A DNA stretch of 64,000 bases from an uncultured Planctomycetia bacterium (GCA_964430735.1 CAYSFB010000005.1:110390-174389), one strand, 5' to 3'. Positions 22,391 through 56,923 are shown, numbered from the stretch's first letter. A program made the numbers and translations. The notes: generated by a model from the letters alone, not told the origin.

Positions 22391-25300
22391 GGCGCGCGAA
22401 TGGCCGCTTCGGGAGACGTCGTGAGTCAGAGCCGTGCGGCAAAAGAGGCCGTTCTTCTGGAAATGAATCAGCTCCGAAAAAGCGGATTTGATTCATGGCC
22501 CCTGAGCCAAAGACTGGATTGGCTCAAGTCCTGGCAGGATCGTGAAGTCATCGAGACGTGGGATTGGAACGAACTGATGTCCGAGGCAGGTCTGACATTC
22601 GGGCCAGGTCGATCCGTTGTGCCCGATGTCGGTGAGCGGGGGGTCGGCGTATCCGTATTTGATAAATTCAAAATTCTCAGTATCTCCGATGGCGCCGGTT
22701 CCGCTCAGCCCCGCTTCCTGACCGTCAACGGGTCGCTGCATGATTGCATCGCCCTGACTCTTTTTGACCCGGCCGGCCGCACCGGAGTTCTGTTTCACCT
22801 GCACTATCTCCAAGACGCAGATACGGTCATCTCCCGAGCCATGACCGAACTGGCTTCGCAGAGGTCCGGCGCAGAGCCGCGTTGGCAGGCTCGATTGGCC
22901 GGCGGTTGGTCGGAACAGTCCGAAGATCTGGCGATCCGAATCCTGCGGGCTCTGGAGCAGCGTCAGATTCCCGTGGAGAGCATCGACATCCTGAGCAGAC
23001 CTGCCAGGCCGATCCAGGATGCGGTCGACAGCGCGTACGGCGGGGTTCGCCCTGTTTTGGATGTCGCGACGGGAGCGCTTTATGAGATTGCCCCCGGTCG
23101 ATCCGGCGCGCGGATGGCATCGAGGACTTTGCGGGCGGGCACGGCATCAGTCTTGTTTGCCGTTTTGGCTAATGCCTATGTGTATGCGTTGTTCCGACAC
23201 CACCTTGCGGGAGCCCTCGGCCCCTGGACGTCGGGAATCGTCGGATTTGTTGTCAACACATCCATCTTCTTAACCTTTTCGGGCTGGTTTAGGTGGAGCC
23301 ATCTATCCGAGGAAGCCGCGTTAAACAAGGTCCGGAAGGTTCGGTTGGACTTGATTCGTCGGGCAACACTTGCGGAGGACTGGAATCTGGTGCGGGCCCT
23401 CAAGCGCACGACACCCAAGATCGTACTCCCATCCGAGTATTCCAAAGTCGTTTACGGCGGTAAGCAGAATACCGTGAGCAAGTCGGGCAAAAAGATACGG
23501 CACATACTTCTCACGCCCGAACTGGCGGTCTCTGCGCAGGCGATCCGCTATCTTCTGGTGCGCCGTTCGTTGGGTTTTGATTACGATGAACAGGTTGCAG
23601 CCATCCGCTCCTCAGGGCGCGGCGACATCCCGTTCTTTACCGTTTGGCAGCGCTTTTATTGGGTGAGCTACTCGGACCTGGAGACCTTAAAGCGCGCCCA
23701 TATGTATCCGCTCTTCAGCGTTTACATTCTGGTTCACGGATCGCTCATGAATACCGTTGCCCTGACGGCCTCCATCGTGCTCCGGCTCTACCATCAGGTC
23801 TTGGGCGGCGCGAAGCGGGAGGGGGATATCATCACCGTCCCGGCTCTTGTGACCGGCGTTGCGGTGGCGACATATGCCTTGGGTTTGGTTGCCGAAACAG
23901 GCGGAAGGATGCTGATTGCCGCAGCCTCGGGCGCCAATCCCTGGGATGGGCTGGCCCATATCCAAATGTCGTTCGCCGGGCATCTGGCGGTGATGAATTC
24001 GCTTTTGTCCTACGTGTATCTCAGGGAAACGATCGCCAAGTTTGATTTGGATGCCCAGCCCGAACGATCAGGTGCGCGGTTGGCGGACAATCCGGCGGTT
24101 CAGCAGGCGTTTGATCCTTCGCGCGGTATGCTCACGGCCCAAGACCTGAGCGTGGAAGCGGCACCGGCTGTTTTGGCCGGACAGATCCGGATGGTGATGG
24201 AAAAAACCGGCAAGAGCAGGGATGTCATCGCCGTATTTGATCTCGACGATTATGGGCATCTTCGGAAATCCGCCGTGTCGGCCGGAGCCTCAATGACGGG
24301 CATCATCTCGCATGAGAGTCTCGCCATCCGCATGGCCGGTTTGGGCATGCGCTATTTCCAAAGCATGCTCATGGAACGCGACGCGGACGGCCGCGTGGTG
24401 CAGATCAACGTCATTCCACGGCTCATTTCTGCGGACGCCGACGCCAGACGATCCAGTTTCGGGCGGGCGGTTCTGCTAATGACACAAGTCGTTCGTGAAC
24501 TGGGTCTCGACCCCTCTCAGATCGTTACGAACGACTTTTTTTCCGTGAACAGCGCTTTTAAAACCACGCTCGACCGCGTCGCCGCTCATGCGGTGCAAAA
24601 CCAGTCCGAGATCAGGGAAACCGGTGCGCGGTTGGCGGATCGCGCGGAGTCCGCTGCCTTGAGCGATGCTGAAAAATCCAGGCTCACCCCCGAGTATCGG
24701 ACCGCGGCAGAGTTTTTTGACAACTTCGAACGTCTGAAGGCCGCTCATCCGGATCATAAGTGGATCGTGGTTGGCCGGCACATGGAATCCACGTCGAACC
24801 TGTTCCGATATCTTCAATCCTACATCACGTATTCTCCGCCGACCCTTCTGGGTCTGTTGCAGCGGTATTTTATGGGCCGGTTCTTGTCCGCCAAGGGAAT
24901 TCAGTTCGACCGCATCATCGCAAGCGATCTGGAGCGCGCCCACAGCCTGGGTCAAAAAGTGGCGGATCAAAACTCCGCGGCTGTTGAAGTGAAGCGGAGA
25001 CTGCGGGAGGTCATGACGATCTCTCTCGGCGGCATCCGCAGCGACCTGTTCGACGTCGCGCGCGAAGCGCAGCGGCTGCGTTTCATGTCTCACCCCGAAA
25101 ATTACGACATTCCGGGATATTCCGGAAGGGAAGTCACGACCTATATCCAGGAGCTTTTTTACAAAGACGTTCCGGGCCATGCGGCGCGGACGACGTTTGT
25201 CGCGACGCACGGCATGACGATCATTCTACTGCTCCATTATCTGCTGAAGATTCCGTTCGAGAAGTATGAAGCCGTTTTTAAAATGACCGGCAATTCGCCC

Positions 25301-28300
25301 AATGTCGGCCTGAGCGTCTTCTCCTACGACCCGTTGGAACGCTCTTGGAAAATGTGGGTGTATGCGGACAACTCTTATCTGCCCGCCTGGGTCCGGCCCG
25401 AAAGTACGGGCGGGTTCTTCCGCATGTTGGAACGGATTTTTTACGTCGGTCAGGGCATTTACCGCATCGGTTTGCGGATATTTGGGCATCAGGGTTATGG
25501 TCAGCCGGATTACTTTCCGCTGGTCCTGCCGTTCGTCCGGCCTTCCTCAGCCCAGATCCGGGTGCTCAGCAAGATGGCGCATCACGGCGTTTCAAAGGTC
25601 CGCCCATCCGGAGATCAGGCAAGCCCTCCGTTCCAAGGCGCGCGTCTGGCGCGCGGCGATCGGGAGCGAATGGAAAACGTGCTCCGCCGCGTCCGTTACC
25701 GCAGGGGAGTCCTGCCATCGCTGAAGGTGGCCGCTCAATTGTACGACGAGCATGGCCGGTATCTTTCCTCCGGCACCAACCGCACGGGCAGGCCGCATGC
25801 AGAGCCGGATGCCGTGCTCAATGCCTTTAAGCGCAAGATCCGCGATTCTAAAAAACAGGGAATAGATTCGGAGAAGATCCACCTGGCCGAAACAGTTGCC
25901 GACTATCTGCATCTTCGGTGGAGGACGCTGGATCGCGATACGGATGAAGTGACTTTAGCCCTGCTGGATTGGCTGAATCTGGCCCTGAACACCCCTCTCA
26001 AAAATGCATCGTTTTACGTGAGTCTGGATCCCTGTAAGCAATGCGCCGGGCTGCTGAGCCGTTTGGGCGTCCGGCAGGTTTTTTACGGAATGTACGATTC
26101 GAATCCGCTTCAGGACGGAAGGGGCCTCTCCATTTTGAATCAGAACGGCATTCAGGTGCAAAACCATCTGATGGAGCGCTCGTTCGAAATGGAGAATGCC
26201 TTGTTTGTCCGCGCCGTCAAACTCATGCCGGCGCTCTACCTCATGCTGCACAATGCCAGGAAAAATCTTTTCGCAGCATGGTTCCGGCACACGTATGCGG
26301 ACCGCTTATCCGGTCTTGAGCTCACGCTTCGGAAGCATCGTGAAATCGCCGATATCCTCGACGCGCCGCCGAATTCCCCCGTGCTGAAGCGGAACCGGCT
26401 TGATTGGCGGCCGATTCGACATCACACCACGAACATCGCCCAGATGCGGATGTCGATGCTCACTCGCAGCATCGTCAATCCGGATTCCAAAAACACCCGG
26501 GTTCTTTACGGAGGGGCCGGCACCGATTTGACCGGTGTTTTGGAGACTTTTGGACCTGCGGATGTTGCCATGGTTTCGTATTACCACGGGTTGCAAAAGG
26601 AGGATTTGCAGACTGCGATCGAGATTCTGCAGAATTCAGGCGAGCAACCGCCTCTACTGGGCGACCGGCGCGCTGACGAGTACCGCCGTGTAAAAACCGT
26701 CTATGGTTTTGGAACCCGGCATTATCTCGAAAACCGTCACGAAATCACCAATGCGCTCGCCATCGAATTGGCTGCGGTCGGAGCGGAGCGGGCCCGGGTT
26801 GATGTGGAATCGGAAGTGCCGAGACTTATTTTTGAATGTCCGGATCCATGGACCGGAAAACTCAGGACGGTTTCTGTGCTTTTCATCGAAGCGGATATTA
26901 CTGAGTCTGACCGGTATCCCGACGCTTTAAAGGAATGGATGCGAAGTGGGTTCGACGGATACTTTCAAAAAGCGGGGCTCAAGATCGCCCAGGCCTATTT
27001 GACTCGGCCCGAATATCTCCGCGGCATCTACGACCGCATGAAGCCGGAAGGGTATTTTGCAACCGATGATACGGCGTATGTGGAGTTCGATCCAGATGTG
27101 GAGGCGGACATCTTCCAGGACTTTTCGGACTATTTTCCGGTCAAGGACGGCATCCGGAGCATTTATCCCGATGGGCTGGGGGAAGTGATCCAGGCTCGCA
27201 TTGCGGGAGACAGCGCCTTTTCAAGCCGCTCCGAGTTGACCTTGCGGCAGATGTACGGCTTTTATCTCCGGCTGCGGCAAAAAAGCGTCGGCGCTCGCCT
27301 GGCCGCGCCCGGGGAAATCACCGACCTGCTGCCGGATCCGGCTCAAGCCCTTCCGTACGAACAATTGATGAGCAATTACAAAGGCTATTTGAGCGAAGGC
27401 TTGATGCGGGACGTTCTCGGGACCTACACGGCGCATTTTGTCCCCGCTTCGCTGGATCCGCAGGCCCGGGAGACGGATGCGCGGATCGTCCGCGAAAATG
27501 CCGGAAGAGGTTACGCCGATCTTCAGGTGACGCGGGTGCTGGACTACCACCGCTACATCGTTCCGATGATCCGTCAGTGGAAGACGGAACATCCTGACAA
27601 GCGTCTTCTGGTGCTCAACGTGGACACCCACGACGATCTGGCGACGTCTTATTCGTGGGTCAACGACGCGAACTGGGCGTATCGGGCCAACAACAGCGGT
27701 TTGGCCGACGTCTATCACGTTTATCCCGACGAGAATTTCCGCGCGTTCGAGTCAGACGCGCCGACGCAGCCCAAGGCGTTGAGGGATCTGGTGCTGAATC
27801 CCGAGATCAATCCGAATAGCTATGACGAGGTCTGGGTTACCATCGATTACGACTACTACTCCGCCCGCAGCGGGTATTACGCGGGCTCGTACAACCTCGA
27901 CCGGTTCGAGAGAGATCTGGAGCTGCGGGCGCTGACGGGTTTTTTCAGGCAAAACCGAATCCGGGTCTCCAAGGTTGTCCCGGTCATTTCCAAAGAATAC
28001 CTCTATCACATGGAGCCGGCCGATCAGACGAAGTTCGTGGAGGAATTGACCCTCCAGATCCATGAAGCATTTGAGCAGCTCTCCCGCAGCCAGACCGATT
28101 ATCCGGCCTCAGACAAGCCGTGGACGGTCGAAGTCCCCGAGGGAGAGTCCTATTGGGAATTCGCGATGCGCCGCTCGCTGGGTATGGGCGCGCGGCTGGC
28201 CGGCGATCCGACGGATCAGCATGGGCGCATCGTCGAGTTGTTGGAAAAACCGGACACGCGCCTCGTCCGCATGCCGAGCAACGGCTTCGACCGGTACCGT

Positions 28301-31300
28301 ATCGAGGCCGCGGACGGCGGCGTTTTGTACGAGTTGGTGGGCCAAGAGTCCGGCTCCGGTCTTGCGCCTGTGTGGCTGATCGAGCCGATCGACCTTTCCC
28401 GACTCGAAGCCGGCGACGCGCGGATCATCCTCGACTTCCGCACCGAACCAGAAAAAACACAAGCCTTCGATGCTCTGGTCCGCAGCAAGGCGGAGCATGC
28501 TGCGGCCGCAGAGGATCCAGGCGTGCATGCGGATTATCTGCAATCCTCCATCAAGAGTTATCTCGATGCCGGGCTGCTGAATCCTCCAGCCTCTTCGACC
28601 GGCGATCTTTTGGCCGATCACTTTAAAGGAGCGTCGGTCCTGAATATCGGTCTGGAAACGGATGAGTACGGACAGTTGCGGGACAAAAATATCGTGACGC
28701 ATCTCAGGTCGCGCGGAGTGGACGCCGTCGGCGTCGATCCGCAGGCCCCGAACCGGCCGGATCTGGGACTGGTGAACGGTCTCGCGCAGAGACTCGACGT
28801 CCTGCCAGCCGATCGGTTCGATTGGGCGGTGAGCATCGGTCTCTTCGATCCCGGATTCATCGAAACACGGTTCATGAACGGCCGCCGCGCTTTTACCGAC
28901 GAGAGTTATCGCTCCGTGGCGAACGGACTTCGGCGCGTACTCAAGGACGGCGGACGCTTCCTGGTCAACACTTACAGCAATCCGAACGACAAGCTGACGC
29001 AGGCGCTCATCGACCGCGGATTCGTGCGGATGGAACAGGTAGACGGAACCGGAACCAGGATCTATATCAACCGCAAGCCCAAGCCCTCTCTCATGGAAGA
29101 CCCGGCTGTCCGCCGTTTTATGAAAAAGTTCGGCCTCGACGGCGCGCGGCTGTCATCCGCCCTATCAGATGTCATAGATGGCCGGGAAGGAGCTTACACT
29201 TCTCTTTGGGTGGAACTTTATCCGGTCATCATTCGGAAGATCGATTCGTTTGTCCAACGTGCCGGCAGCCCGACGGATCTGGACGTCAGCCGCATACAAG
29301 ATCACGTTGAGCAGGGTCTGCGGCGCATGATCCTGGAACAAGTCCGTTATCGCGAGAACATCAACTATGCTTTGATCCACACCATGATCCGCCGGAGGAT
29401 CATCGACAGTGCGAGGTCTCAGACCGGATTCAAGCGGGCGCGTCAAGTCCGTACTTACTCATCTGATCCGGCTGATATGACGGATCTTTGGCGCGACGAT
29501 CGACCGTCTGCGGAATCTGCTGCGGGTGATTCCACCGGTCCTTCGGCGGTAGTGAGCCAGTCCTTGGACCGGATGCTGAGCTTGGCCATTCAAGAGTATT
29601 TGGACGCTGCGCATGCCTACAGTCCGGACAAGCCGCGGAGCATCCTCAATCTTCTTTTGGGCGTCGGCCGGGATCGGGCGATCCAGATCAACAGGCCTTT
29701 ATTTGCGGCTGTGGCAAAACAGGCAGGCATATCCCAATCCCGGGTCTCTCAAATATGGAGCGGATATCTCAAGTATATCGTGGCCCATCCATCACATCGG
29801 CAGGAAATGATATCGCTGGTTCAGTATTATCCGTCGTGGCTCAATCCTCGAGATCGACGCTTCATGGGACATCAACGGTTGGGTGCGCGGCTGGCCGGCG
29901 TTTCGGAGCAGGATTTGAACGGGTTCGTGAGGTTCATCCTGTCAGGCCGGTTCGAGCCTTTTGATCCGGAGCACACGCGCATCATGGCCCGGGCATCGGA
30001 ATCGGGATCCGATGATCCGGTCACGGCCATGATTCTGGAATCGACCGACCAAGGACAGCAAAAATTGCAAACGCTGGCGGTGGTGAACCGCGAGGGCCGA
30101 TTGGTCGCGGGGGCTACCGTCAGCATGTGGTTCACCGGCGGGAAGAAGTGGCTGAACGTCATCCGCATGGACACGTATGAAAAAGGCCGGAGTTACATGC
30201 GCCGAGCCGCGCGGCAGTTGCTGGTGCAAGGCCAGATCGATCTGTGGAGGTCCAGCGACAATCTGTCCGCCGCCGGAATCAAGCTGCATACCAGCTTCGA
30301 GGGAGACGCCGAGATCGGGGTGCGCCGAGACCTCGGGGCGTACGATCTTTATCTGAAGCCGCAGACGGGCGCGCGGATGGCGGACGCTGATCTGACCGGA
30401 GAGCTTCGTTGGAAAAGCTGGTTCCGGCCGTGGATGCTGGATCTCGAAAAACCGGAGCAGCTGAATCTTTTCTTGCGCCGCCTGAATTTTCTTTCGGGCC
30501 TTCCGGGGTATCACGCTTCGAGAATGCTGGTTTCGACGGCTGTCCCGCTTCACATTTTTCAGGTGCCCGTTTTTAAGGCGAACTCCGCGTGGATGATGGG
30601 CTTCATGGCCGCTCACCTGATTCTGACGGCAAGGGGTAAGCGGTTCACGGAGGAGCAGAATTTGCGGATGCAATACGGCCGACCGGTGCTGCAGACATCC
30701 GGAGCGTTCCGTTACACCCAGCATCCATTTTATCTGGCCTATTTTTCGGTCTACCTGACACACTTTTTCATTCAGCCCAACTGGTTCTCGTTCGGGGCGA
30801 TGCTGAGCATGGCCGCTTTTACCGCGCTCCGGATCGTCGTCGAACAGCACGAAATGTGGGCCCTGCACGGCAATAAATATCTGGCGTATTGGCAGTCCAC
30901 CCCCATCCTGTTTCCCTGGACCCGGCCCGGCGGCCCGTCCGGCGCGCGGATGGCCGGTGATTCGGATCGGGCCAAGCGGATCCAGTCCGGACTCACCCGG
31001 GCATTGGCGGAAAACGCACGATTGCTCAGAACCATCGCTCGGGAAGGCGCGATGCCGGAAATCGATCTGGAAGAGTCGGTGCGCTTCGAATTCGGCGACG
31101 ATGGGCGCCTGGGCAATCTAGGGCTGATGGATCGCGGGCGATACACGCCCATCGGCAGAGAAATTGCCGTCCGCATCATCCGCGCAGGAGCCCTCATTCT
31201 CAGCGAATATTCTGATCGTTACCGGCTGAAGGACGGAAGTAAAACGGTCTACGTTCGAATTCAGGAGCCGTCCCTCTCACCGGCGGAAGAGGACGGCCGC

Positions 31301-34300
31301 GAACCGGGTGACTCCAGTCTGATCGAATCGGCCCGCAAAGAAATCCAGATTGCATGGAACGGGCTCATGGATCTCTCCAAAGACTGGACGATGGATCATC
31401 CGCAGTTGAATGCCTTGTCACATCTGCTGTCAGGCCTGATGACCTTAAACTCTCATTTGAGACAAATGATGAACAACGGCCCGCCCAGCGCCGAATCTAC
31501 CGCCCTTATCCACGAACGAATCCAAAATTGGGCGATCCCTCAAATCAAGGGCGCCATGAGCTTCCTGACTCAAAGCGATCTCCGACAGGCATTGAGCCCT
31601 TCTCAAAGAGTCGCTCTTCTGGGAGATGACGGACCGCTTCTCAAGGCCCAGGCCTATCTCCGCCGGTTTCTCGGCGCGCGGATGGCGACCGCGCGTTTTG
31701 TGGAGGATGGATGGACGGTGCTGCGCCGGCTGACCGACGCGGATTTTGGAGCAGGCGCGTCGCCTGAAGCTCGCCGATTTATGAGGGAGTATTCCGCCTT
31801 CAAGAACGGGTCCAAATGGCATGCCCAGCGCTTTGCTCATGAGATCGTTTCGCTGATTCGAGAAAAGGAATCGCTCTCGGACCTCTCGGAATGGGCAGTT
31901 GTCACGCCGCGCGTGATGAGCCGGAAGACCCCGGCTGTGCACGCTCTAGGCGAAAGCATCGCTTCCCAACTTGGAATCACGCACGTTCCCCTGTGGAGGA
32001 ACTCGCCTCGCGAAAACGGCGAGCATTACTCCCGCATTGCCACGGCCGAGGAGCGGATGCGATTCAAAACAGAATCCGCCGGCGACCTGATACTTTCCGA
32101 AGAGTTGAGAGGCAAAAAAATCCTGCTCATCGACGATCTCATCACGACGGGAGCGACGCTGCAGTCGGTGAAGCGCTTTTTGGAAGAATCCAACGGCGTC
32201 CGGAGCATCCGCGTGTACGCCGCCGCTTCGCTGGAGACCGACCGTGCGGACCTCGAATACGAACTGAACACGAATCTCATGAACCTGGCTGCGTTCGAGC
32301 TGTTGGACGCGATTTGGTCGGCATTCCTGCCCACCCATCTTGCGCTTCAAACGGTTCTGACACATGTCCATTTTGACCGTCTGGTGAGCGCCCTGTCTTA
32401 TCCGAGTCTGCAGGCGATCACCCGCGCAGCGCATCGGTATTTTACCGGATTCCGGAATCCGACACCCGAAGAACAGCGACGAATGGATGTCGTCGGATCG
32501 GAACTGAAACGCCGCGCCAAAGAGCATCGGGAAACGGCCGAGCGAATCGACGTCCACGCGTCGTTTCGCCGCGTTCCCGGACTCGGGTCGGGGATTCCCG
32601 TCGCGTTTATCGCCAAAGGCGACGGCGATGCCGCCTATCGTGCCTCACGGATCGAGACGCGCAATACCGCTAATCCGGGATCTCCAGCACAGGCTTTTGG
32701 TAAGCGCCGCGAATTCCGAGAAAACGGCTTTGTGGCTGTCGGCGAATTCAGCGACAACGGTTCCGTATCACACCAGTGGAAAATAGAATTATGGGACCCC
32801 AGAGGATTCGCCCAAAGAGGGGATGAAGCGATCCTGGGACTGCAGGACGAAATCAGGATCGTTCGTATGTCCGACGGATCGCTTGTGCACACGATCCGGC
32901 ATCCGAAGTTAACATCCGTACACACCATCGAACTGAACCCCCGCGACCCCAATCTGGCGCTGATCACCGCGACGGGTTCCGACAGGATCCTGGAAATCGA
33001 CCTCCGAGACGGGTCGATTGTTTGGGAGTGGAACCCCTGGAGGAACGGATACGGCGTCAACAAGCTCGGCTTGAGGATCTTCGAGGACGGCGATCCGCTG
33101 CCAGCCGGAGCGGCCGTCATCGGATTTGAAGAAGCGAAACGCAGGATGGAATCCGGTGAAGCGGTGCGCGAAGAGGAGAATCTGGTCCATGTTGTGAGTT
33201 TTGACCGCCCCGATGCGATCCTCGAAAAATGGGAAAAGACCGCGAGTCCGAACTGGGCCGGATACGGTCCCGACGGAACCATTCTTGCGACCTTGTTCCG
33301 GGTTAATCAGGCCGTGCAGATCGACCGCGCCGGCGGCGTCCGCGTGCTCTATGACGATCTTCGACGCCCGCACGCAATGATCCGGTATAAAAACGGTTAT
33401 CTGATTCCCGACACGATGAACGGACGGATTGTGATCCTTAAGGACGACTTCACGCTCGATCAGGTTTATGACTTATCCACCTTTCCGAACGAGCGCAACC
33501 TTCCGCATCGTTCGTACGAATGGCTCCAGTTCGCCCATCCGATATCGGACGATCTGATCGCGGTGGTCGATTCTCGCCGGAACAAAGTGTTCGTGCTCGA
33601 TCCGGAAAATTCTTTATATTCGGAATATCCCTATGACCCGAATCGAACGATGCAGGCGGTCCTTCCAGTGGTCGATGCGTCGGCCGCGCGGCTGGCGGCT
33701 CCGAAGACGCACGATTTATCCGATACGATCGGGAAGCAGATCGATGCTCTGGACGAGTTCGCCAGGCAGTCTTCGGTCCGAGTGCAGTACGAGAGCGAGC
33801 CGGAGCGCATCGAATTCGTTGATCCGAATTACGAAGAACGGTCCGGTCAATTCCAGCTGGGATCCGCGATCTTCCACGTCTTGGAAAACGCCATCAAATA
33901 TTCTCATCCCGGAGGCGCGGTCGCGGTCCGGACCCAGCGCGAGGCGGATGGAACGATCACCATCTCGATCCGCGACAGCGGGATTGGGATCGAAGAACCC
34001 TATTTATCCAATGTTAAAAAGGGGGTGTTGTATTACCGGCACCCCGCCGCCCAGCGCCACGCGAGAGGCAGCGGCCGCGGTCTGGTCGTTTCCAAGGAAA
34101 AAATCGAGCGGGTTTACGGAGGGACGTTTGAGATCCAAAGCGGAGGCTGGTCCGACGGCACCTCCGTCACGATGAGGTTCCGACCCGGCAGCCCGTCCGG
34201 CGCTCGGTTGGCCGCGTTTCAGGCGGACGCGGTGGCCGCGTTGCTGCGCATGGCGAACCAAGAACAGGATCCTGACAACAAGAAGTCGATCGCGGACTAT

Positions 34301-46300: not shown

Positions 46301-49300
46301 GAGGCCAAGTATCTGGCGCTCGCGATGCGTTCATTTTCCCGTCCGATGAGCGATGGAAAAAAAGGAAGACTGTCCCGCCATGAACTTTTGCGCCGGGTGA
46401 TGAGCAAGGGACTCCTTCACCGGCATACCGACAGCCGCCCCGTTTCTATTTTTGAGCCCGCCCCGCCGGTCCACACCGAGATCCGCGTGTTCCGTCTCTC
46501 GAATCTGGCGCCCGACAGCGGGGAGCTCGATCCGGTTTACCGGGAAGTTCTTTTCGGGGCCCGCCGCCTGGCCGCCGCCGCTTCCAGCCATCTCAAGAAG
46601 GAATCCGGCCGGCCCGTCACGGACATCGAGGACCGGCTGGCCCGCCGCTGGGAAGATTACCGGAACGAAATCACCGGACTGTATGCGGATGAGCGTTATG
46701 GTTCCGCGGCGCTCCTTCAAGCCGACTGGTACGAGGCCACCGGCGACATCGATGACCCGCGTCTGGTCCAGGAGCTCGGCATGATCCGGGCAACCGACGC
46801 TGCCGGTGAATTCCTGGCCGCACACGACGGCCTCCGCGACGAGCTGAAGGGCCGGTTATTCGAAGTTTTTGTCCGTCATGCCGGCCTCATTGACGCCGAT
46901 CTGTCCGGCGCGCGGCTGGCCGGGGTTGAACAGACTGTGAAGCATGTGGACGAGATCTTTTTCAGGAGCCTGTCGGACGAGGACTTGCCGGCCGCTTCGG
47001 AGAACGTGAAAAAGTTTTTTGTCGATCGGTTCAAAGACCTCCTGGAATCCTTGGAAACGCTCAAGAATCCCTTGCAGGCGTTCAAGGACCTTGCGCGCGC
47101 CGCGCGGCGAGAAGGCGGGATCTTCATGCTCTATGCCATCGGGATCGAGCTCATCGAGGACGTCGTGATTCCCGGTATCCTGGTGTATGCGGGGCAGCCG
47201 CAATGGGTTCCATTCTTTTTGGCGTTTCACAGCGAGCCGTTCATGTACCCGCTGTATTTTTATTTGCGGCGCAGGCTGAAGTCGACGCTCAAGCCCGATG
47301 AGTTCAACCGGTACTTTGAAAACGTTCGCGGCGACATGCTCAAAGCGACAACCCTGGAAGAAAAATGGAAAACCGGCCAGGAAGCCGCCCGCCGCGTGCG
47401 GCTCGGGGACGTGGTTCAGTATTTTGTCCAGGTTCTGGAGCGCGACACGCGTGAGGAGCTTGCGTCGGAATCGGATCTTGTCACGGAGCGAGAAGTCGCG
47501 ATCAAGGCTTTGGGGCGTCTTTTGGCACCGCCGGAAGCGCAAAAAACGGTGACGGCCGAAGTCTATCAGAAGGCCCTCGTTCAGCTGATGCTGCACGCGG
47601 ACTCCTCCAACCCCTGGCTGCGGAAAACGGCGCTCGGGGCGCTGGCCAAGATCAAGGACCCGCGCGGGTTGGCGCCGGTGCTCGCGGCGCTCGGCGATCC
47701 GAACCCGATCGTCAAATCCACCGCCGCCAGGGCGATCGGGCAATTCCGCTCCTCCGTTCCCGGTTCGGCCGTGAGCAGTTTGATCCAGACGGCGCTCGAC
47801 TCCCGAGAAAATATTTATGTCCGCGTGTACGCGATCCTCTCACTCGGCCGCATCGGCGAAAGCCTCGGGTCCGCCGCTCCGTCCAAACTGACGCCCGCGT
47901 TGATCCGGATCGCCGGTTTTGAGGATCCGGCCCTGCAAAGCGCTTCCATCGAATCGTTGGCGCGGTTGAGGAGCGGGGACCCGGCCGTGTGGGAATTTTT
48001 AAAAAACAAGGCGCTTCGAAACACCAAGAACTTTAATGCCGGCGAACTCGCGTTGTGGGGCCTCACGCGGACTGTCGCGGCCGGGTTGAGGACGGGGAAT
48101 GCGGATCCCCGCGAGCGGGAGCTCATGGCGCTTTTGAACCTGGCGCAAAAAGGGCCGGACGAAAAGCGCGCCCTGTTCGCGAATCAGGCGCTGACTCAAA
48201 TCTTCGGAATCCCGAATAAGACCGCCAAGCCGGCCGTAAAAAAACCCGCTCGTCGTCCGGCCAAAACCGGGCAAGTCCAGTTGGTGGCGGTCGAATCGCA
48301 GCCGTCGGTCAGGTCGACCCAGCGGAATCTGCAAACGGATCTGAATCGCCGAAAAGTTTCTCATTACGTGATGCGGGCGGATGATTTTTATTATCGGAGA
48401 AGCGACGCGCCGATTCTTGAATCCGGTCAGGTCGATTCCCGGAACCGGTTGAACGGAGCGCTCTTACTCAGGATCGTCCGCCGCAATCAGGAAGGCCGGC
48501 CCTTCCGCTATCCTTTTTACGATCCCTTCCGCGGCAAGGCCTACCTGCACCTGACCCGCTCCCCCAAAAACAGATTGATCCTGGTCGGCACCCGCGAAGA
48601 AATCGCCGCGATCGGCGAGTACCTAACAAAGGAACACGTCGATTTTACGACCCGTTCCAACCCGGGTCCCGAATCTCCCGAGCCCGCCGGCGCGCGGATG
48701 GCGGAAGTTCAGCCGGAAAAAAATCCAAACGCATCTTTCCAAAGAATGGTGACTGTGATCAGGGATGGCGGCATTCACCTTCATCCCTCCCTGGAGATTG
48801 CGTCGATTGCACGAGCTTATCAAGGCACCGAAATACGCCTGCATGACGGCAGGCAATCGGTGAATGCAAAAGAAATGTCCGAAATAGGTTTGTTGGCAGC
48901 CGGTCAAGGAGCGATGCTTACCGTGTCCGCTGTGGGCCCTCGCGCCGAAGAAGCCGTCGATGAAATTGCCGGGCTATCTTATTTTGCGCCAACAAAAGCC
49001 GCGCGGCTGGCGGAGGATGGGCGGACATCGCCGGATGCTTATTCCAACGATCTTCTCAAATGGTCTGCTTCGCTTGTCGAAGCCATGCCGCGCGGGTGGT
49101 TCGCCGGCATCTGGCGGCGGGATCCGTTGGAAAAGGCGGCGCAGGAAATGGCTGAGACAATCCTTTTTAAGATCGCAGCGGAAGAGCGCTCCGGTTATCT
49201 GGACGCGTTAAGGCGTTTTGCGCAGACCGCCCGCATCGGACCCGAAACGCTGATCGTGGACATGCGGCAGGAAGTGTTGCTGCGTGCCTGGAACCGTATT

Positions 49301-52300
49301 TTGAGCATGGACGCGGCGTTCACCAGAAGGGAATTTTTGGCAACTTTAGCCGCGGCGTCGGTTCAGACGGCCGTTTCGAGGTATGTTCCGATCCGTGAGG
49401 TTTTGTCCGGCCTTTCAGCCTCCTCAATAAAGGGCGCGAGCGTGGACGTTGCGTTGAGGTTCTTGTGGCAGCCGTCGTTTTTTTCGGTGGCATTTGAGAG
49501 GTACGAGGAAAACAGGGCGGCTCAGAAGCGTATGTTCGGAGCATCGAGCGTAGTAGGCTCGGATCTCCACGTGGAGTTCGTCTCTCCCATTCGTGCCATC
49601 CACGAACGGGTTCATGGTTCCGGAGACTTCAGGCCCATCAAGCCTGGGGATGCTTACGACGACACGCTCATCGGCGAACCCTATCTCGCGTCGCCCTTCG
49701 AAGAATATCCTCTGTGGGCCCGGAAAGAGATGGTCCTCGTCGCCAGACGATTCGCGGATAACTTCAATGCAACGGAAAGTTTCATGCGTTCGCTCGACGA
49801 AGATGTGCAGGCGCGGTTAGCAGATCTGGATCCATTGTCCCCGGAAGCGTCTCGCTTGCGGGCTTTGGTCTTGGAGCAGATGGATGCTCCGATCAACGTG
49901 CGAAAAGCCATGATCCGGGAGATCGGTGAGGAGCGCCGGGCCATCCAAAGCCGGCTGCAGCTCGCCGAGAACCCGGCGGATGCCGCGATGTCTTATGCGG
50001 AATCATCGAACAACGAATTCGCCTACGATCTTTTTCCCGAGCCGGACAAGGGCCCAAGCCCGCTTCAAATGGCTTACGACCTGTCCGGCCTTGAACTTCG
50101 CCTGATGCAGCAGATTGTTCAGTTCAGCGGGTCTGCGTTCGGACCGTCCGGCGCGCGGATGGCTTCGGACGCTCAGGCAGACCAGCCGGGACAGCCGGAC
50201 TCGGACGCGGACATTATCCGGAAATACGGCTGGAAAACCATCACGGACGACCCTCTAGCGACGGAACTTCTGCCGCGCGCACAGGCGCAAGCTGCCGTGG
50301 AAGAGATCCGGTCCTACTTCGAGGCCGAAGCGCCCGACTACGACCGCAAGAACTTTGACCGGCTGGATCTGGACGCGGCGCTGCAGTCGTCCGTACTTTT
50401 GAACGGCAACCGCCGGCTTCAGATCGTCCTTGTTCCCTATCAGGAAGACCCGGATGCCAAGCCGTGGAACCGGGTGAAGGACGGCATGTCGTTGTTCCGG
50501 ATCGACGGGGATCTCGTGGCGCACGGGTTCTACACGCACCGCATTGCCAAGAACGAGACTTTTCCCGCGTTCGGGATGCATCCTTCGGCGGCGCGCTTCC
50601 ACGCGTCCGAACAGATCTACAAGGCCTATCTCAAGACCCTGTACGGGATGTTCCGTCCGGACTTCTTCGGCGTTCAGGCCTCGCAGATCTGGAACCGCCA
50701 GCCGGGCACCAACCCCGACCGCACCATTTTCTATATCAAACGCGGCTTTTTGCTCCCGAACTCGGACGATCCGGGTCTGCAGGCCTTTGCGGACGGGATC
50801 TACGTGCGGTTGAAGGAAGACGACTGGCTCTCCCGCGAGGAAAAACTGGAGGTGTACGACCGGCTCCTCAACGGCCTGGAAGCCGAAGAGGGGAACGCGA
50901 TCTGGTATTCGACGCCCCTGGCGCCGGAGTCCGCCGGCGCGCGGCTGGCGGGTCGGGAGCGGATGCACGAACTGAAGCGGCGGGCGGACTTTAACAATCT
51001 GCGTGTCGGTGACCGCATTGAACTGCCCAAGGCGACCGCGTCGGTTCTCTGGGTAAAAAAAATCGGCAAGGGACATGCCGTGCTCGGGATCCAAAACGGA
51101 TCGGCGGAACGCGAAATCCAGATTGACCAACCCTTCAAATCCGGTTCCTCGATCACGTTCAAGCATGTCTCCGCGGGTGTTTTTGTCGGAGCGGTCGAGG
51201 TCGACGCAGATCGGTCTCAACCCCGTCTCGATCTGCGCGTGCTCACGCCCAAGGTCTTGCCGGATGATCCTATGAAGCAAGTCCCCACCAATGACGGTTC
51301 CGGCGCGCGGCTGGCCGAAGGCAGGCGGAAGCGCAGCGAATCTTCGGCGGCCAGGACTCGCCGTGAGAGGATGATCGCCCGGATGAACGAGACGCCTCCG
51401 GACGGTCATCATTGGAAAATCTCGGAGTTGGCGCAGTCGTTAGGGGTCAGTATCCACACCCTGCATAACGATCTGAGGGCTCGGAACCTCCGTTATTCCG
51501 ATAGAATCCAGAAACACTCTCTCAAAAGGCCCTCCAAGAAAGAGATTGTTTTGAGGCGGGAGCGCGTCGCCGCCAAGTTTTTTCAAGCCACTCTGGATAA
51601 CCCTTGGACGGTTCAGTCGCTTGCCACAGAGCTGGGGCTCGCTAAAAAAACCGTTTATGACGACTTGGATTCCATGGATCTTCTGGGGTCTGATCTCTTG
51701 CAGTTGGAAGACCGCGCGCCGGTCGTCGAGGCTCGTGCGCGCCGACTGCGCTTGACCGTTCTGCTGAATCAAAATCCTCCTCATGGCGACCGCTGGACAG
51801 TGGCTCAATTATCCAAAGCTTTGAACGTCAAACAGGGGATTGTTTACTACGATCTTCAGTATCTGGGGCTTCTGGATTCCGACATGATTGAACTGAGAAA
51901 AAAGCCATCCCAGGAATATCTGAATGCCCGCCGGCAGCGGCTTCGCAATTTGCTTCAGTTGAACCCTCCGGATCGCGATCGCTGGACTACCAATGAATTG
52001 GCGCGAGTGCTGAACATGCCCCGGTTCATTGTGTACAGCGATTTGGCGGCCATGAACCTGCTCGATTCTGACAGGCTGGATATCGAAAGATATCAAAATC
52101 CATTTTCTCGGGAAGAGATCGAGCAACGGCGTCTGCAGATCGCGGTCACCCTTTTGTCCGTGGCGCCTTCCGGGAGGAAGCGCTGGACCGTGGGAATGCT
52201 GGCGGAGTATCTGAATCTGTCGTATGACCTGATATACCACGGCCTGATGGAGGCCGGTCTTTTAAAGTCCAAAAAATTGAGTCTTCGAAAAATCAGACGG

Positions 52301-55300
52301 CCCCATGCCCCAGTCGAAAAATCTCTGAGGAGTCTGGCTGCGTTTGAGATGAGCGCGGATCCGGTGGAATCGCTTCCTGATGATCAGGCCCAGTTGATCG
52401 ATCTGGCGCGCAGCAGGCTGGATGACGCTGAGTACGAGATTTTTCTGCGCGATTATTTTTCGCAAGACGACGAGAGCATCGAACAGGCCGCTGCGGCCAG
52501 CCATCTGACGACCGAGGAACTCGTTCTTAAACGGAGCGAGATTCTTTTTAAGCTGTCGCGCGACGGCGCGCGGCTGGCGAGCGAACGCCAACTGACACTG
52601 GATCGTCTTCGGAACGTTGGCCGACGTTTAGAGCGTCTCGCGGAAGCCCTCGGATTTGGGAAAGACCACCCCGAGATCCAGCGCTTTGAAGACGAAATGG
52701 ATCGCTTGAGGCAGGCGGGTGACAAGGACGCTTACCGAAGGCGAGCCCGGGAGCTGTACGACGAAATCAGTTCGCGGCACACCCCGACATTCCGGACAGC
52801 TCAGAACTTCGTTTTTTACTCCAAGTTCATCCGCGGGCTTGAGATGCGGCTTCTGTTGCGGGAAACCGGCAATCCCGGATCGAGTTCCAAGTTTGAATGG
52901 CCGGAGGATGAAAAAACCCGAGCCCGCCATACCCTCCTGGCCGCGAAGCAGTTTGTCGGCAGGATAGCTTTTGCCATCAACTGGTGGGAGGACCAGCTGC
53001 GGAATTTGGACGCTTCGGGTCCACTGGAACCAATGCCGCAGAATATCGATTGGGATGCTGTCGAATTTATGGCCGTTCTCACGGCTCTCCAGTCAGCGGA
53101 TATAAAGCTCGCGGGCTTTTCAAAATCCATGGACCGGATCGATCGCACTCTCACGAATGTGTTGGAAGGGATTTATCAGGACGGGCCGGACATTGGCGGT
53201 GCCGGCGCGCGTCTGGCGCAGTCCAAGTTTGCGGTTGTAAAGGAGCGCCCCGAAGCCGCGGCGCTCAAGATGGCCGGGGCGCTGCGTGCAGCGATGGCGG
53301 CCAATACGGATTCGATAGAGTTCTTCTCATTGCGGGGCTGGATGGTTTTTCATCCGGATGGAACGGCTTCGGCGGTTTTTCAGCCAGTTCGCGACTCATC
53401 GGGTTATACGCCCGCCCACGAGCGTTTAAAGGAGGCCTTTGTCGAAGATTATGCGGATCAGGCGATATTGGAAGGTGCCTGGGTCAAGCTGGCGGTCATT
53501 TTTAGAGACGGCAAGTCGGCCGGAGTTTCGCTCATGGACTTCGATAAGGATAAAAAAGAAAGTTTTGTTCAGGCCAGCTTCCTGATGGAAGACCTGCTTC
53601 GGGCCGCGTTCGGCGATCAGGAGGCCCGTGAGGTGTACAGCTATGTGCCGATGGCAGAGTTTTTGGACGAGGAATATGAAAAAGTTCTGCGGCCGTTGGC
53701 GGACCAAAACGGCACATCGCGGTCAGCGCTTTCCATCATCAACCAAACGTTGAGGAAAGCCGCAAAAAACGTTCAATCTGAACCCGTTCCGGAATCGTCA
53801 AAAGGGGACAGGTCGGGTGCGCGGATGGCCAGCAAAGGTGTGGTGGACTTGAGTCAGGAATTCCGCCGGCTTAATACCAAGCTGGTGTCGGTCTTGAAGG
53901 CCGCCGAACCGGACTCGATCAAGCTCACCACCACGATGATGCATGCTTTTTTTGCAAGCGACACGATTCCTGTCCCGGGCGAGTATTCCGATAATCCGGC
54001 CGAGGATTATTCAGGCCGGCTTGCGATGAGCATCGTGTGGTTCAGAAAAGCTGCCGTGAGGAGGGGCAATCACAGTAAACGGATATTTCAGCCGGAAAAA
54101 GCGATCGGGGCTTTGAGTCAGATTCTCGAGGTTCTGTCCGAGACAAATATTCCGGATCGGATTCCGCGCAAGACCATTCTTACTGCGCGGACGGCGGTCA
54201 GCGATTTCATGGCCTTGATCGAACCCTCCCTGAACGAGCCGCAAAGGAGGGCGTCCGTTTCCGGTTTCGAAGGGCGAATCGGCGTGGAGGCGCAGCTCCA
54301 GTATTGGTATGACCAGCCCGGCGATTTTGTGGGCGATGAGATTGATATCACGGGCTATCTCGGATCCAAAAGCCGCAAAGAAGCCAAGATCCATTGGAAC
54401 TTTTTGCTTCCGAACGGCCAACCGTTGAAGCGGAGGGTCGCCATGGGAATCGGAGGCGGGGCCGGGATTTTGAAGTACACCGTCCAGCCGATGAGAGAGG
54501 TCGGAGCGCTTAATCTGGTATTCCGTGGTTATCGGGGGTCGGAGTCGCGCCAAGAGGCAAGGTCGGGACTGTTCCGCTGGGATGCGGCTGCTCAGACAAT
54601 CCGGCACACGCGCGAACTCATGGACGAATGGCTTGCCGGTCAGTACAAACGGACGGGTGATTTTAAAAGCGAAGAGAAGCCCATCAACCGGTATATCGGC
54701 CAATCCTCCGTCGACATGGCGACGGTGAGCAAGGGCTTTTTGCTTCCCAACGGGCGGACGTGGGGGCATCAAGACCCTATGCGGTTGGGGCTTCGCGGGC
54801 TACCGCTCTATACCGTGCAGGTCCAAGGCGTTGCCGGACAACTGCAGATCGTCTTTCGCGGTTATCGTGATCCGCATGGAAGGCGGCCCGTCGCAACCGC
54901 GGTCTGGGATTGGGTTTCGGAAAAGGGGAAATTTGTGGAGACGCACGACCGTTGGCTTTCCAGACAGTACGCGAGGAGCGGGGTGTTTTCAACCGAGGAC
55001 TTTGTGATCAATGATTATCTGGGCTTGTCCGGTGTTCGATCGGGCGTGCTGAATAAGGCTTTTCTCCTGCCGAACGGCAAAACGCTGGGCTATCACCCGA
55101 ACCTGCGGTTGAACCGTAAATCGGAACGGTTCGACCGATTCACGGTGCGCGTGCAGAGAAGCTTCGATTCGGGTCCTTTGGAGCTGGTTTTTAAGGGCTG
55201 GAAGCTGGATGCGATCGGATGGAATTCGACCGCGCAGTCAGAATGGGTTTGGAATCCCGAGACCGAAAAACTTGTTTTCCGGTCCAGGTCGGAAGGTGCC

Positions 55301-56023
55301 CGGCTGGCGGTAGATACGGGTCGGAATCGCATCGCGGCCGAATCTGATTTGTGGCTTGAGCAATTGTCGGATTTGTTGGCACTTTTTGAACTCTCGAGTT
55401 GGGAGATCGACGCGCGCGCCGAGGGGATCGCACGGCCGGAGAACGCGGAAGATTTGACGCTTCTTTTGCTGAAAAGCGCGGCGGCTTCGTTCGAGGAAAC
55501 GGGTAAAACGGTCTTGGTCCGCGTCGGTGAGGGCGTGCTGGACGCGGGGGCCAAACAAGACGAACTCATGGGGATGTTAAAAAAGCTTTCTGAGCACGCA
55601 GTGAAATACGGGATTTATTTTGATTGGAGCCGGGTGATGGGATTTGCCGGCGAAGTTCCTTCCGCGCCGGAAGGAAGCGAAGAAGTGAGGATCGTGACGG
55701 ACGCGGCCCAGCTGGCAGCCGGCCAGACAGGGCTCGTTTCGGCGGAGAATCCGGATATTTCGGGTCTGGGGCTCTTTGCCGCGCTCCTGGCCCGGACTCC
55801 GAAGAACGCACTCGACGCTTTTATGACGCAGCACGCGAGCGCGCTCAAAACGTTCTACGAATCCGAGCTGTCGGTCGAGACGCTGGCGGACTTCAAGGAC
55901 GTGCCTGCGGACCCCGGCCGGCGCATTCAACTCAACTTCCACAAGGCTGTTCCGCTTTTGCGCGTGATAGAACTTTTTCAACGGCTCCAGACCGCCGCCC
56001 GCCTGGCATCCATTTCCGCCTGA
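20690..56023 (+). CDS. giant 11,777-aa multi-module protein or polyprotein; more than 30 unrelated domains delimited by a recurring [SA][GA]AR[LM]A hexapeptide
   Basis: A single ORF with no stop for 35,334 nt. All recognisable domains are read in this frame. N-terminal signal peptide/TM [20 protein letters not shown]. The motif occurs at all 34 module junctions (positions listed in the first finding) and in the last 10 residues ([10 protein letters not shown]-stop). Confidence 0.75.
   Translation: [11777 protein letters not shown]
23105..24070 (+). other. module 3 (322 aa): polytopic membrane module, 5-6 predicted TM helices
   Basis: Hydrophobic runs [79 protein letters not shown] and [13 protein letters not shown]. 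Confidence 0.6.
24623..25636 (+). other. module 5 (338 aa): histidine phosphatase (PGAM-branch) domain
   Basis: [13 protein letters not shown] is the RHG catalytic motif. IIASDLERA and [10 protein letters not shown] supply the second His. Confidence 0.6.
25790..26060 (+). other. CMP/dCMP(CDA)-type zinc deaminase motif region inside module 6 (25637..27289)
   Basis: [14 protein letters not shown] (HxE) and [12 protein letters not shown] (PCxxC) have the correct order and spacing. Confidence 0.55.
28187..29140 (+). other. module 8 (318 aa): class I SAM-dependent methyltransferase-like
   Basis: [25 protein letters not shown] and [13 protein letters not shown] (motifs I-III). It ends at the variant motif GARLS (29141). 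Confidence 0.45.
29141..29881 (+). other. module 9 (247 aa): sigma-70-family-like module (region 2 plus region 4 HTH)
   Basis: Region 2-like [41 protein letters not shown]. Region 4-like [28 protein letters not shown]. The size equals that of a free sigma factor. Confidence 0.5.
30368..30940 (+). other. module 11 (191 aa): ICMT/phospholipid-methyltransferase-family-like membrane methyltransferase
   Basis: [17 protein letters not shown] ... [25 protein letters not shown] (RHPxY plus the EE..L..FG..Y..Y pattern), with flanking TM helices. Confidence 0.5.
31673..33682 (+). other. module 13 (670 aa): type I phosphoribosyltransferase (ComF/GntX-like) followed by a beta-propeller-like domain
   Basis: PRTase PRPP motif [22 protein letters not shown] (nt ~32118-32165). 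Downstream are repeated Gly/Asp-rich beta strands ([39 protein letters not shown]...). Confidence 0.55.
33683..34198 (+). other. module 14 (172 aa): histidine-kinase-type HATPase_c (GHKL) domain with a possible H-box
   Basis: N-box [14 protein letters not shown], G1 IRDSGIGI and G2 [19 protein letters not shown]. The upstream [15 protein letters not shown] is a possible phospho-His site. Confidence 0.6.
35294..36127 (+). other. module 17 (278 aa): second methyltransferase-like Rossmann module
   Basis: [23 protein letters not shown] and [10 protein letters not shown]. Confidence 0.35.
36960..37320 (+). other. NUDT9-like Nudix ADP-ribose pyrophosphatase domain inside module 18 (36128..37480)
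   Basis: [30 protein letters not shown] ... [23 protein letters not shown] closely follows the NUDT9/NUDT9H pattern NPRGRTGLRGRG...GPNH.DP.VTRW...KGYMDDPRNTDNAWIETVAV. Confidence 0.7.
37481..38536 (+). other. module 19 (352 aa): GHKL-type ATPase region resembling an anti-sigma-factor Ser kinase
   Basis: [35 protein letters not shown]. The call is tentative. Confidence 0.3.
38537..39601 (+). other. module 20 (355 aa): ECF-type sigma-70 module (regions 2 and 4) plus an extra C-terminal HTH
   Basis: Region 2-like [21 protein letters not shown]. Region 4 [44 protein letters not shown] is a textbook ECF sigma-4 signature. Confidence 0.65.
47560..48000 (+). other. PBS-lyase-type HEAT repeats inside module 26 (46907..48688)
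   Basis: [46 protein letters not shown] ... [17 protein letters not shown] ... [19 protein letters not shown]. Confidence 0.6.
48689..48997 (+). other. module 27 (103 aa): HPr-like phosphocarrier domain
   Basis: [76 protein letters not shown] matches the HPr fold pattern (GLHARPA-like His, NAKS, LG..G). The module has exactly stand-alone HPr size. Confidence 0.6.
51302..52564 (+). other. module 31 (421 aa): five tandem ~50-aa HTH-like repeats followed by a sigma-70 region-4-like HTH
   Basis: Repeats of the form RR.R....L...PPxGxxWTxxxLAxxLxxxxxxVYxDLxxxxLLDSD (nt ~51350-52270). Then [43 protein letters not shown]. Confidence 0.5.
54320..55290 (+). repeat. three tandem ~110-aa protein repeats of unknown fold (FLLPNG...LxLVF[RK]GY motif) inside module 34
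   Basis: [12 protein letters not shown]...[12 protein letters not shown] / [12 protein letters not shown]...[13 protein letters not shown] / [12 protein letters not shown]...[11 protein letters not shown]. Confidence 0.55.
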
Positions 56024-56054
56024 TCCGCTCCGCGGCCTTGCGTCAGGAGCGTTT

Positions 56055-56064
56055 GTGATAGAAT
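56055..56064 (+). promoter_or_regulatory. extended -10-like element GTGATAGAAT, 12 nt upstream of the ATG at 56077
   Basis: The third copy of the GTGATA[AG]AAT class. Confidence 0.35.
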
Positions 56065-56076
56065 ACCGGTTCAATT

Positions 56077-56922: not shown

Positions 56923-56923
56923 G

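Follow-up and report, generated by a model that had tools for sequence, protein, structure and literature searches.

An open reading frame (ORF) of 11,777 codons, open for 35.3 kb and located at 20690..56023 (+), is present in a 64,000-nucleotide (nt) stretch of DNA from an uncultured Planctomycetia bacterium (GCA_964430735.1 CAYSFB010000005.1:110390-174389), referred to at its full length as the window. The product, of 11,777 amino acids (aa), is a train of ~35 modules separated by a five-residue motif, [GA]AR[LM]A. Comparisons with relatives show this motif to be, as far as sequences can tell, a selected junction element that bounds complete, exchangeable modules, in a family whose hydrolase head and tail are both conserved. 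We consider it probable, though not by much, that the motif has two roles, as a proteolytic processing site and as an in-frame joint for module exchange; the role in DNA is seen directly in the comparisons, and cleavage is deduced from the anatomy of the protein. The window sequence is natural; the Logan metagenome contig SRR14271366_11767 is identical to positions 48983..57621.

Thirty-three strict copies of the motif were found, all in the frame of the giant ORF and on the (+) strand. Each reads [GA]AR[LM]A at the position given for it in a first-pass annotation of the window, and the spacing of 103-835 aa between copies reported there was reproduced. GARLA is found at 24071..24085, 24623..24637, 25637..25651, 27290..27304, 28187..28201, 29882..29896, 34199..34213, 34559..34573, 36128..36142, 38537..38551, 46907..46921, 50936..50950, 51302..51316, 52565..52579, 53204..53218 and 55295..55309. 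GARMA is found at 22391..22405, where it ends the N-terminal module, and at 23105..23119, 30368..30382, 30941..30955, 31673..31687, 37481..37495, 43172..43186, 44402..44416, 48689..48703, 50150..50164 and 53816..53830. AARLA occurs at 33683..33697, 39602..39616, 40382..40396 and 48998..49012, and as the terminal copy at 55994..56008, and AARMA at 41462..41476. The first residue is Gly in 27 copies and Ala in 6, the fourth is Leu in 21 and Met in 12, and beyond the five residues information is found only at position -1 (Ser in 15/33).

The number of copies expected from amino-acid composition is 0.25, and the maximum over 500 shuffles was 3. The other five frames and the rest of the window together contain 4 copies. 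The motif is absent from the true neighbour genes (7,956 aa), and its rate is 2.8 per 1000 aa in the giant ORF versus 0.022 in the long ORFs of 80 unrelated loci (408,515 aa in all), a difference of ~125x. These shuffles and background rates rule out chance or low complexity as the source of the motif. At the DNA level, GGCGCGCGGHTGGCS has 36 matches with <=2 mismatches where 4.65 are expected. A genome-wide DNA motif of the Chi or uptake-sequence type is ruled out, since copies outside the gene are at chance level and every genuine copy is read in a single frame of this one gene, on its coding strand. The motif is also not part of a domain repeat, as its flanks are unconserved and the modules are unrelated to one another.

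Two variants that had been recorded alongside the strict copies, GARLS (29141..29155, +) and GARLM (35294..35308, +), are present. Both are probably genuine junctions with an altered last residue, because their first 12 nt are the canonical GGCGCGCGGCTG. The looser candidates that had been proposed, QARLA at 22886 and GARRLA at 46556, also exist, but their DNA is non-canonical and unrelated to the 15-mer described below, as is that of a further QARLA at 49808, and all three may be chance occurrences. Disorder propensity is raised over 15 residues either side of the motif (z = 4.6), and the AlphaFold predicted local distance difference test score (pLDDT) is <35 for aa 496-572 before the first motif and <50 over the 44 aa following the motif at 55295.

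Conservation is found in both the peptide and the DNA that encodes it. Across the 33 copies in the window, eight of the first and second codon positions are invariant, and variation is confined to third positions, to G/A at position 1 and to L/M at position 4. Two distant family members, L086 and L087, encode GARLA using AGG or AGA for Arg and other codons for Ala and Leu. The peptide itself is under selection, because the variation is synonymous or limited to G/A and L/M and because these distant members keep the peptide with AGG/AGA.

The DNA 15-mer GGCGCGCGG(C/A)TGGCG is nevertheless conserved well beyond what codon usage would give. In the window, GCG occurs in 27/33 motif copies against a background of 41% (P = 1.5e-6) and CGG in 26/33 against 31% (P = 2.4e-8), and the bias of the motif codons is also above context-specific usage. 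In L085, a relative with a guanine plus cytosine (GC) content at third codon positions of 0.50, GGC is used in 10/10 copies (background 27%; P = 1.9e-6), CGG in 10/10 (13%; P = 1e-9) and CTG in 9/10 (18%; P = 2.1e-6). Seven of the 10 copies in L085 are the identical 15-mer GGCGCGCGGCTGGCG, a GC island in an AT-richer gene. Conservation of the DNA stops sharply at the edges of the 15-mer, with no conserved flanks.

The first-pass annotation placed the motif at every module junction, and this assignment is supported by the properties of the segments between copies. No mutual similarity was detected among the 33 inter-motif segments at E<1e-3, none of the 11 recognisable domains crosses a motif, each lying wholly within one segment, the flanks are disorder-prone, and the breakpoints of homology with the relative P0001, described below, fall on the motif. 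A histidine phosphatase domain is found in module 5 (24842..25357) and a cytidine/RibD-like deaminase in module 6 (25667..26221). A ComF-like phosphoribosyltransferase (31814..32224) occupies part of module 12, and the region of this module beyond it (module aa 288-666, ~32552-33688) matches aa 809-1197 of the relative P0010 with 42% identity. Module 13 (172 aa) carries an isolated histidine-kinase ATPase domain (33854..34183), and the motif follows 5 aa past the domain end. Further domains are a methyltransferase (35825..36001), a near full-length ECF sigma factor (38702..39211; profile positions 12-162 of 165), HEAT repeats (47576..47758) and helix-turn-helix domains (51407..51670). Module 25 (103 aa) is a complete HPr (48740..48973) that aligns to residues 7-86 of 91 of HPr 7x7h. 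It retains the active-site His, its fold fits the module end to end, and the motif lies ~7 residues past the end of the fold. All of these domains are on the (+) strand. Some modules are multi-pass membrane proteins, interleaved with cytosolic-type enzymes. The giant ORF joins in one frame what are predicted to be complete, independently functional proteins.

Cysteine is scarce in the giant ORF (11/11,777 aa), two of the 11 residues forming the CxxC of the deaminase in module 6, and the Cys content of relatives is 0.05-0.27%. HExxH motifs occur in modules 21 and 26 and are not conserved features of the family. Module 32 contains tandem FxLPNGxxxG repeats (window ~54323-55294, aa 11212-11535) that are common to a separate protein family (P0002, P0005-P0009 and P0012). 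Conserved domains are found in several of these proteins, one at the N-terminus and one, GGIDL...GFxPVI, at the C-terminus, and the GARLA motif is absent from the whole family.

Nine relatives were recovered, ranging from 1,207 to 7,206 aa where complete. P0001, P0003, P0010 and P0011 came from an exhaustive HMMER search in which the C-terminal 1,147 aa of the giant protein served as the query, and five more distant loci, including L085 and L086, were added by a metagenome scan with an alignment of the N-terminal module (N-module). Word-indexed protein searches with aa 1-1132, aa 2206-3666 or a 119-aa N-module alignment returned no match, though relatives exist. P0001 (7,206 aa) has 15 strict motifs, P0003 (5,056 aa) 9, P0010 (3,291 aa) 4 and P0011 (3,814 aa) 11, where 0.07-0.17 are expected for each of the four. 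L085 (9677-21454; at least 3,926 aa; GC 48%) has 10, L086 (231-3854; complete, 1,207 aa) has 2 and L087 has 1. All seven carry the N-module as well as the motif. N-modules in the family are ~400-570 aa in length, with identities of 50-70% among close members and 26-33% among distant ones.

The cargo is mostly unique to each member, with the motif between cargo modules. Relatives carry, among others, a full AceK, a GNAT domain, an Rce1-type membrane protease and methyltransferases. The match to AceK in L085 runs from profile position 1 and begins only 6 aa past a motif, and in L086 the module after the first junction opens with a lipoprotein-type signal peptide, SRRNASGIAAALLTILLAAC. L086, the smallest complete member, is arranged in the order N-module, GARLS, lipoprotein-type signal peptide with lipobox, (Thr-Pro)n linker, large domain, GARLA, a 38-aa mini-module, GARLA and conserved C-terminal module (C-module); its large uncharacterised domain has no Pfam match. 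The last module of P0003 (aa 4698-5052) is an HPr-like domain fused to the C-module with no motif between them, and so HPr-like cargo recurs in the family and junctions can be lost. The giant ORF belongs, on these comparisons, to a family of giant modular proteins with a fixed head, variable cargo and a fixed tail, for which no earlier description was found in the literature. No relative was found in viral contigs, which rules out a phage origin.

Homology between the giant protein and P0001 starts and stops exactly at the motif. P0001 homology begins directly after the copy at 52565, identity over 60 aa being 13% upstream and 95% downstream. At 53204 the orthologous site is retained in P0001. 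Identity over 60 aa falls from 88% to 13% across the motif at 53816 and from 93% to 8% across that at 55295. The common block, modules 30-32 (52580..55309, +), is 78-93% identical. Modules 30 and 31 can be aligned over their full length (213/213 and 204/204 aa), and P0001 is without the first 131 aa of module 32. Over the whole protein, identity to P0001 forms a mosaic: the N-module is at 51%, modules 30-32 are at 78-93% (module 31 at 93%) and the C-module is at 26%. As read from these alignments, exchange at the motif is shown.

A second case is found within L085, where the first 16 and last 23 residues of the gene's own module 7 make up a 36-aa mini-module (aa 3320-3355) with intact motifs on either side; by its sequence this mini-module is a duplicated, then internally deleted cassette. 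Adjacent motif copies in the window are also more alike than random pairs (P = 0.011). Rare variants of the motif cluster: the copies at 24071 and 24623 are both identical to GGTGCGCGGTTGGCG, and those at 39602, 40382 and 41462 all start with GCC (Ala). The P0001 breakpoints, the mosaic identity, the L085 mini-module and the likeness of neighbouring copies together indicate that recombination happens at or next to the 15-mer. Recombination offers a natural reason for the homogenised motif codons, though the sharing of codons across genomes is not fully explained by it. The first-pass annotation had listed a footprint of recombination among candidate origins of the motif. The switches in P0001 homology and the homogenised codons directly support this, but the motif is not a mere footprint, since the peptide is under selection.

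The conserved N-module (aa 1-572; 20690..22405, +) has a TIKI/ChaN/Ere-type alpha/beta hydrolase core with a helical insert. It opens with a signal-peptide-like helix (20690..20773, +; MSSKYLIRSIALTLSILFPIHDLCWAAA, followed by S), which is seen in the four family members with a complete N-terminus in alignment A1. It closes with a tail predicted to be disordered (aa 496-572) that ends in the first motif. D82, H84, E112, E165, H473 and H476 are invariant in 10/10 family N-modules, as are the blocks [EQ]-D-x-H, x-E-[GA]-[GA], G-x-E and GGYHT[ED]H. The alpha/beta fold is built on a parallel beta-sheet core like those of ChaN, Ere and TraB, and the relatives listed for it are ChaN, the erythromycin esterase EreC, HopBA1, two Ere-like 'succinoglycan biosynthesis' proteins and a TraB protein. 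In its modelled structure the N-module is of the TIKI/ChaN/erythromycin-esterase type and is a candidate hydrolase. A putative catalytic 2His/2Glu constellation (D82-x-H84, E112, E165, H473) is present, and the His84-Glu112 spacing of 28 equals that of His85/Glu113 in Bcr135 and of His3902/Glu3930 in RRSP, an experimentally proven TIKI-family endopeptidase with 2His/2Glu catalysis (PMC6254334). No Pfam or NCBIfam match was obtained in aa 1-572 at E<=0.01 (including PF04187, PF01963 and PF05139), and a profile search of the N-module against PDB sequences gave no match.

The C-module (aa 11541-11777; 55310..56020, +), of ~200 aa in the family, is found in every member with a recovered 3' end, and a PDB fold search with it gave no match. 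As annotated at first pass, the protein ends in ...QTAARLASISA-stop, and the C-module of the three closest relatives ends in a degenerate motif copy followed by [SA]I[SA]A. The proposal that the motif is a C-terminal tag on each module is plausible from this terminal ARLASISA, but the last copy lies at the end of a predicted helix and not in a linker, with only SISA-stop after it.

The members of the family share a frame in which a signal peptide and a TIKI/ChaN/erythromycin-esterase-type module are followed by unrelated complete cargo proteins and then by the C-module. [S/T]-[G/A]-A-R-[L/M]-A is the junction element of this frame, and we propose that it acts at two levels. In DNA, as the comparisons show, the in-frame 15-mer is the joint at which modules are swapped, duplicated or lost between and within genomes, its copies being kept homogenised. 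In the protein, the peptide would be an exposed, specific proteolytic site at which the chain is cut into modules in the manner of a polyprotein. The most economical candidate for the protease would be the N-terminal hydrolase, because it is the only conserved enzyme and there is no conserved partner gene nearby. We infer that the peptide is a processing site, the chain a polyprotein and the head its protease, for several reasons. The modules are heterogeneous and complete, and include a lipoprotein precursor and membrane proteins that would be odd in one uncut chain. The motif lies in a linker context, its terminal copy has a short cap, as in polyubiquitin, and no other conserved enzyme or partner gene is available. 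A parallel is provided by MARTX toxins, in which the protease cuts after Leu and before a small residue in disordered inter-effector linkers. The idea of a cleaved polyprotein fits the anatomy of whole-protein modules, disordered-looking flanks and a conserved TIKI-type head.

Several points weigh against this reading. No cleavage product has been observed, and the evidence for proteolysis is circumstantial. The TIKI superfamily also includes esterases and haem binders, so the fold is no proof of a peptidase, and it is assigned to the N-module without a sequence-level match in Pfam or PDB. The N-module has an export signal, whereas many junctions flank cytosolic-type modules, and export of the entire chain would be needed to bring these within reach of a periplasmic protease. 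The position of the last motif at a predicted helix end means that a cut there would free four residues only. For the DNA role, a joint of 15 bp is short by the standards of RecA-dependent recombination, and the gene has no recombinase linked to it. Finally, genomes with 48% and 58% GC share their motif codons to an extent that within-genome homogenisation does not easily explain, and this may indicate an unrecognised nucleic-acid-level function.

A more specific form of the proposal is that the family is a self-contained in-frame cassette array, in which the 15-nt element is a dedicated recombination site, used to gain, reshuffle and lose whole coding modules with the reading frame always intact, and the same five codons encode the site at which the array's own TIKI-type protease cuts the product into dozens of proteins. 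This is possible, but we advance it tentatively and would not expect it to hold. If it did, gene-content plasticity would be coupled to polyprotein processing in a chromosomal bacterial counterpart of the integron and the viral polyprotein, which would be categorically new.

Alternatively, the 15-mer could be only the DNA joint of cassette exchange, leaving GAR[LM]A as a passive scar in one uncut chain. Such a scar would account for codon homogeneity far beyond codon usage, for homology breakpoints exactly at the motif, for the duplicated and internally deleted module in L085 and for the greater likeness of adjacent copies. However, it would not predict eight fixed first and second codon positions with variable third positions and replacements limited to G/A and L/M, nor a peptide that distant members keep with AGG/AGA Arg and different Ala and Leu codons. 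The motif is also retained at the extreme C-terminus, where no cassette follows, and lipoprotein precursors, multi-pass membrane proteins and cytosolic regulators are hard to picture as one functional chain. We regard a purely passive scar as unlikely.

An uncleaved docking peptide is no more credible. Here the motif would be bound by one partner shared by all modules, which handles the long chain module by module; a chaperone, secretion or translocation machinery, or the protein's own N- or C-module could take this part. A short, invariant motif in a linker context, without conserved flanks and present after every module including the last, would suit this role, as would the conserved N-terminal signal peptide and the very low Cys content, since extreme Cys depletion is a typical trait of proteins exported or translocated in an unfolded state. 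Against it, no conserved secretion or chaperone gene lies beside family members, and neither the modules that open with their own signal peptide nor the DNA-level conservation would be explained.

A signal in nucleic acid, with the peptide constrained only secondarily, is less likely again. The 15-mer would then act in DNA or mRNA, through RNA polymerase pausing or antitermination, RNA processing, or pausing of translation where modules end, as an aid to co-translational folding. This would be consistent with the identical 15-mer that forms a GC island in the AT-richer L085 gene, with the sharp end of conservation at its edges and with the location of all copies on the coding strand; the 15-mer may also bear a loose resemblance to RfaH ops elements. 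However, the substitution pattern obeys the genetic code, and L086 and L087 alter the nucleotides and keep the peptide. No Rfam family or tRNA was found at the motif. The lower folding energy near it is that predicted from GC content alone, and local RNA structure was rejected as its role. Internal translation starts at the fourth codon, which is ATG, CTG or TTG in 31/33 window copies and would initiate each module separately, are very improbable and were rejected, as the modules are not separated by stop codons, nothing like a Shine-Dalgarno sequence is present (the nine bases before the start-capable codon being GGCGCGCGG), CTT, CTC, CTA and GTC also occur at this codon, and the conserved G-A-R upstream of the putative start would be unneeded. 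A processing site that is also an in-frame joint for exchange is the reading that we carry forward.

The giant gene lies among ordinary housekeeping neighbours (IspG, Ino1, RNase PH, SdhA, ThyA and MqnA), together with an SNF2 helicase and an AsmA-like protein. MqnA is directly 3' of the giant ORF, with a best match only 51% identical, and a genome-collection scan for synteny via this gene found no giant gene at other loci. Neighbour genes were scanned at four loci (window, L082, L085 and L086), and no gene is conserved between them; there is no linked recombinase, separate protease or secretion gene, and no chaperone gene is conserved. Directly upstream of the giant gene are the SNF2-family helicase (14692-17997), whose match to a SWIM zinc finger is weak and falls under the Pfam cut-off, and the divergently oriented AsmA/YhdP-like lipid-transport protein (18017-20554), neither of which is kept beside other family members. 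Elsewhere in the window, one ORF (12027-13319) joins a Rieske [2Fe-2S] domain, an FMN reductase and two CDGSH iron-sulfur domains in an unusual redox fusion. A 1,699-aa protein (2084-7183) has weak GH2 TIM-barrel and GH72-like matches at its centre only, the remaining ~1,400 aa being unannotated. A racemase-like ORF (10415-11239) and a radical-SAM ORF (10972-12015) overlap by 268 nt as listed, and the true start of the latter is probably further downstream.

Among known systems, MARTX toxins (multifunctional autoprocessing RTX toxins) are very large secreted proteins that likewise have conserved N- and C-terminal regions and variable unrelated effector modules between them. Their processing takes place in inter-module linkers predicted to be disordered, and their effector repertoires are mosaic between strains. 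The MARTX protease cleaves after Leu with a small P1' residue, Ala being preferred (PMC3153235), which would fit cleavage of AR[L/M]A before its final Ala, and the window motif offers [L/M]-A in a linker-like context. MARTX toxins also include the TIKI-family endopeptidase RRSP (PMC6254334), but there the TIKI domain is cargo, whereas here it forms the conserved head. MARTX toxins have up to ~5 modules versus ~35, and a bare Leu in place of a strict five-residue junction that is also conserved as DNA; the cargo here resembles bacterial regulators and enzymes and not eukaryote-directed effectors. Searches with Pfam (whole protein) and NCBIfam (aa 1-10000) found no RTX/haemolysin-type or glycine-rich repeats and no inositol-hexakisphosphate-activated Peptidase C80 in the giant ORF, which has only 11 Cys in all, and no type I secretion or acyltransferase genes lie beside it, the neighbours being housekeeping genes and the AsmA-like gene.

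The polyproteins of picorna-, flavi-, alpha- and potyviruses likewise carry complete independent proteins, membrane proteins included, in one ORF, with a short conserved peptide at each junction and the protease within the same chain, for which the TIKI-like N-module is a candidate here. In contrast, the giant gene is chromosomal, among housekeeping genes and with no viral-contig relative, the candidate protease is of another type, module content varies freely between relatives, and processing is deduced. Literature searches turned up no account of such a polyprotein occurring naturally in bacteria.

Polymorphic toxins have junction motifs of their own, VENN in CdiA and PxxxxDPxGL in Rhs. In both, a short conserved peptide and its coding DNA mark the border between scaffold and cassette, and inter-strain homology breaks there. 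They differ in having one junction, one C-terminal toxin and an immunity gene, versus dozens of serial junctions and a conserved C-module; no immunity gene or orphan cassette lies downstream of the giant ORF, the next gene being MqnA. Polyubiquitin and other head-to-tail precursors also end each unit in the same short sequence, with cap residues after the last (SISA here), but their units are repeats of one protein, whereas here all are different. Integron arrays have a linked integrase and attC-type imperfect inverted repeats, whereas the element here is a 15-nt direct repeat without conserved flanks, and no integron-type integrase or recombinase was present among the neighbour genes scanned at the four loci. 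Polyvalent proteins, reportedly described by Iyer et al. in 2017, are encoded by phages and conjugative elements, whereas a housekeeping context is found at all loci and no relative in a viral contig.

Whether giant bacterial proteins act as single chains or as cut pieces is an open question. For the giant ORFs of Omnitrophota, cleavage into several products has been proposed and the cleavage points stated to be unknown (West-Roberts et al. 2023, bioRxiv 10.1101/2023.11.21.568195), and this main survey of giant genes states that further analysis is held up for want of known cleavage points. The Omnitrophota proteins are characterised by numerous transmembrane segments, C39 or subtilisin peptidase domains, SecA-like domains and carbohydrate-binding repeats, none of which was found in the giant ORF in the Pfam and NCBIfam scans. 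In the present family the candidate cut sites are explicit and can be counted, the chain carries its own candidate protease, and some natural members are small, L086 (1,207 aa) among them. If cleavage does take place, this would be the first polyprotein system of a cellular organism for which a junction code is defined, with dozens of unrelated proteins co-expressed from one ORF, and a compact protease and site pair for biotechnology could follow. Independent of cleavage, the DNA conservation and the breakpoints show in-frame exchange of whole proteins at a 15-nt joint, a mode of gene-content evolution of interest in itself. The family resembles MARTX toxins, viral polyproteins and polymorphic-toxin junctions, yet it departs from MARTX toxins, polymorphic toxins, integrons and phage polyvalent proteins in the features that define them.

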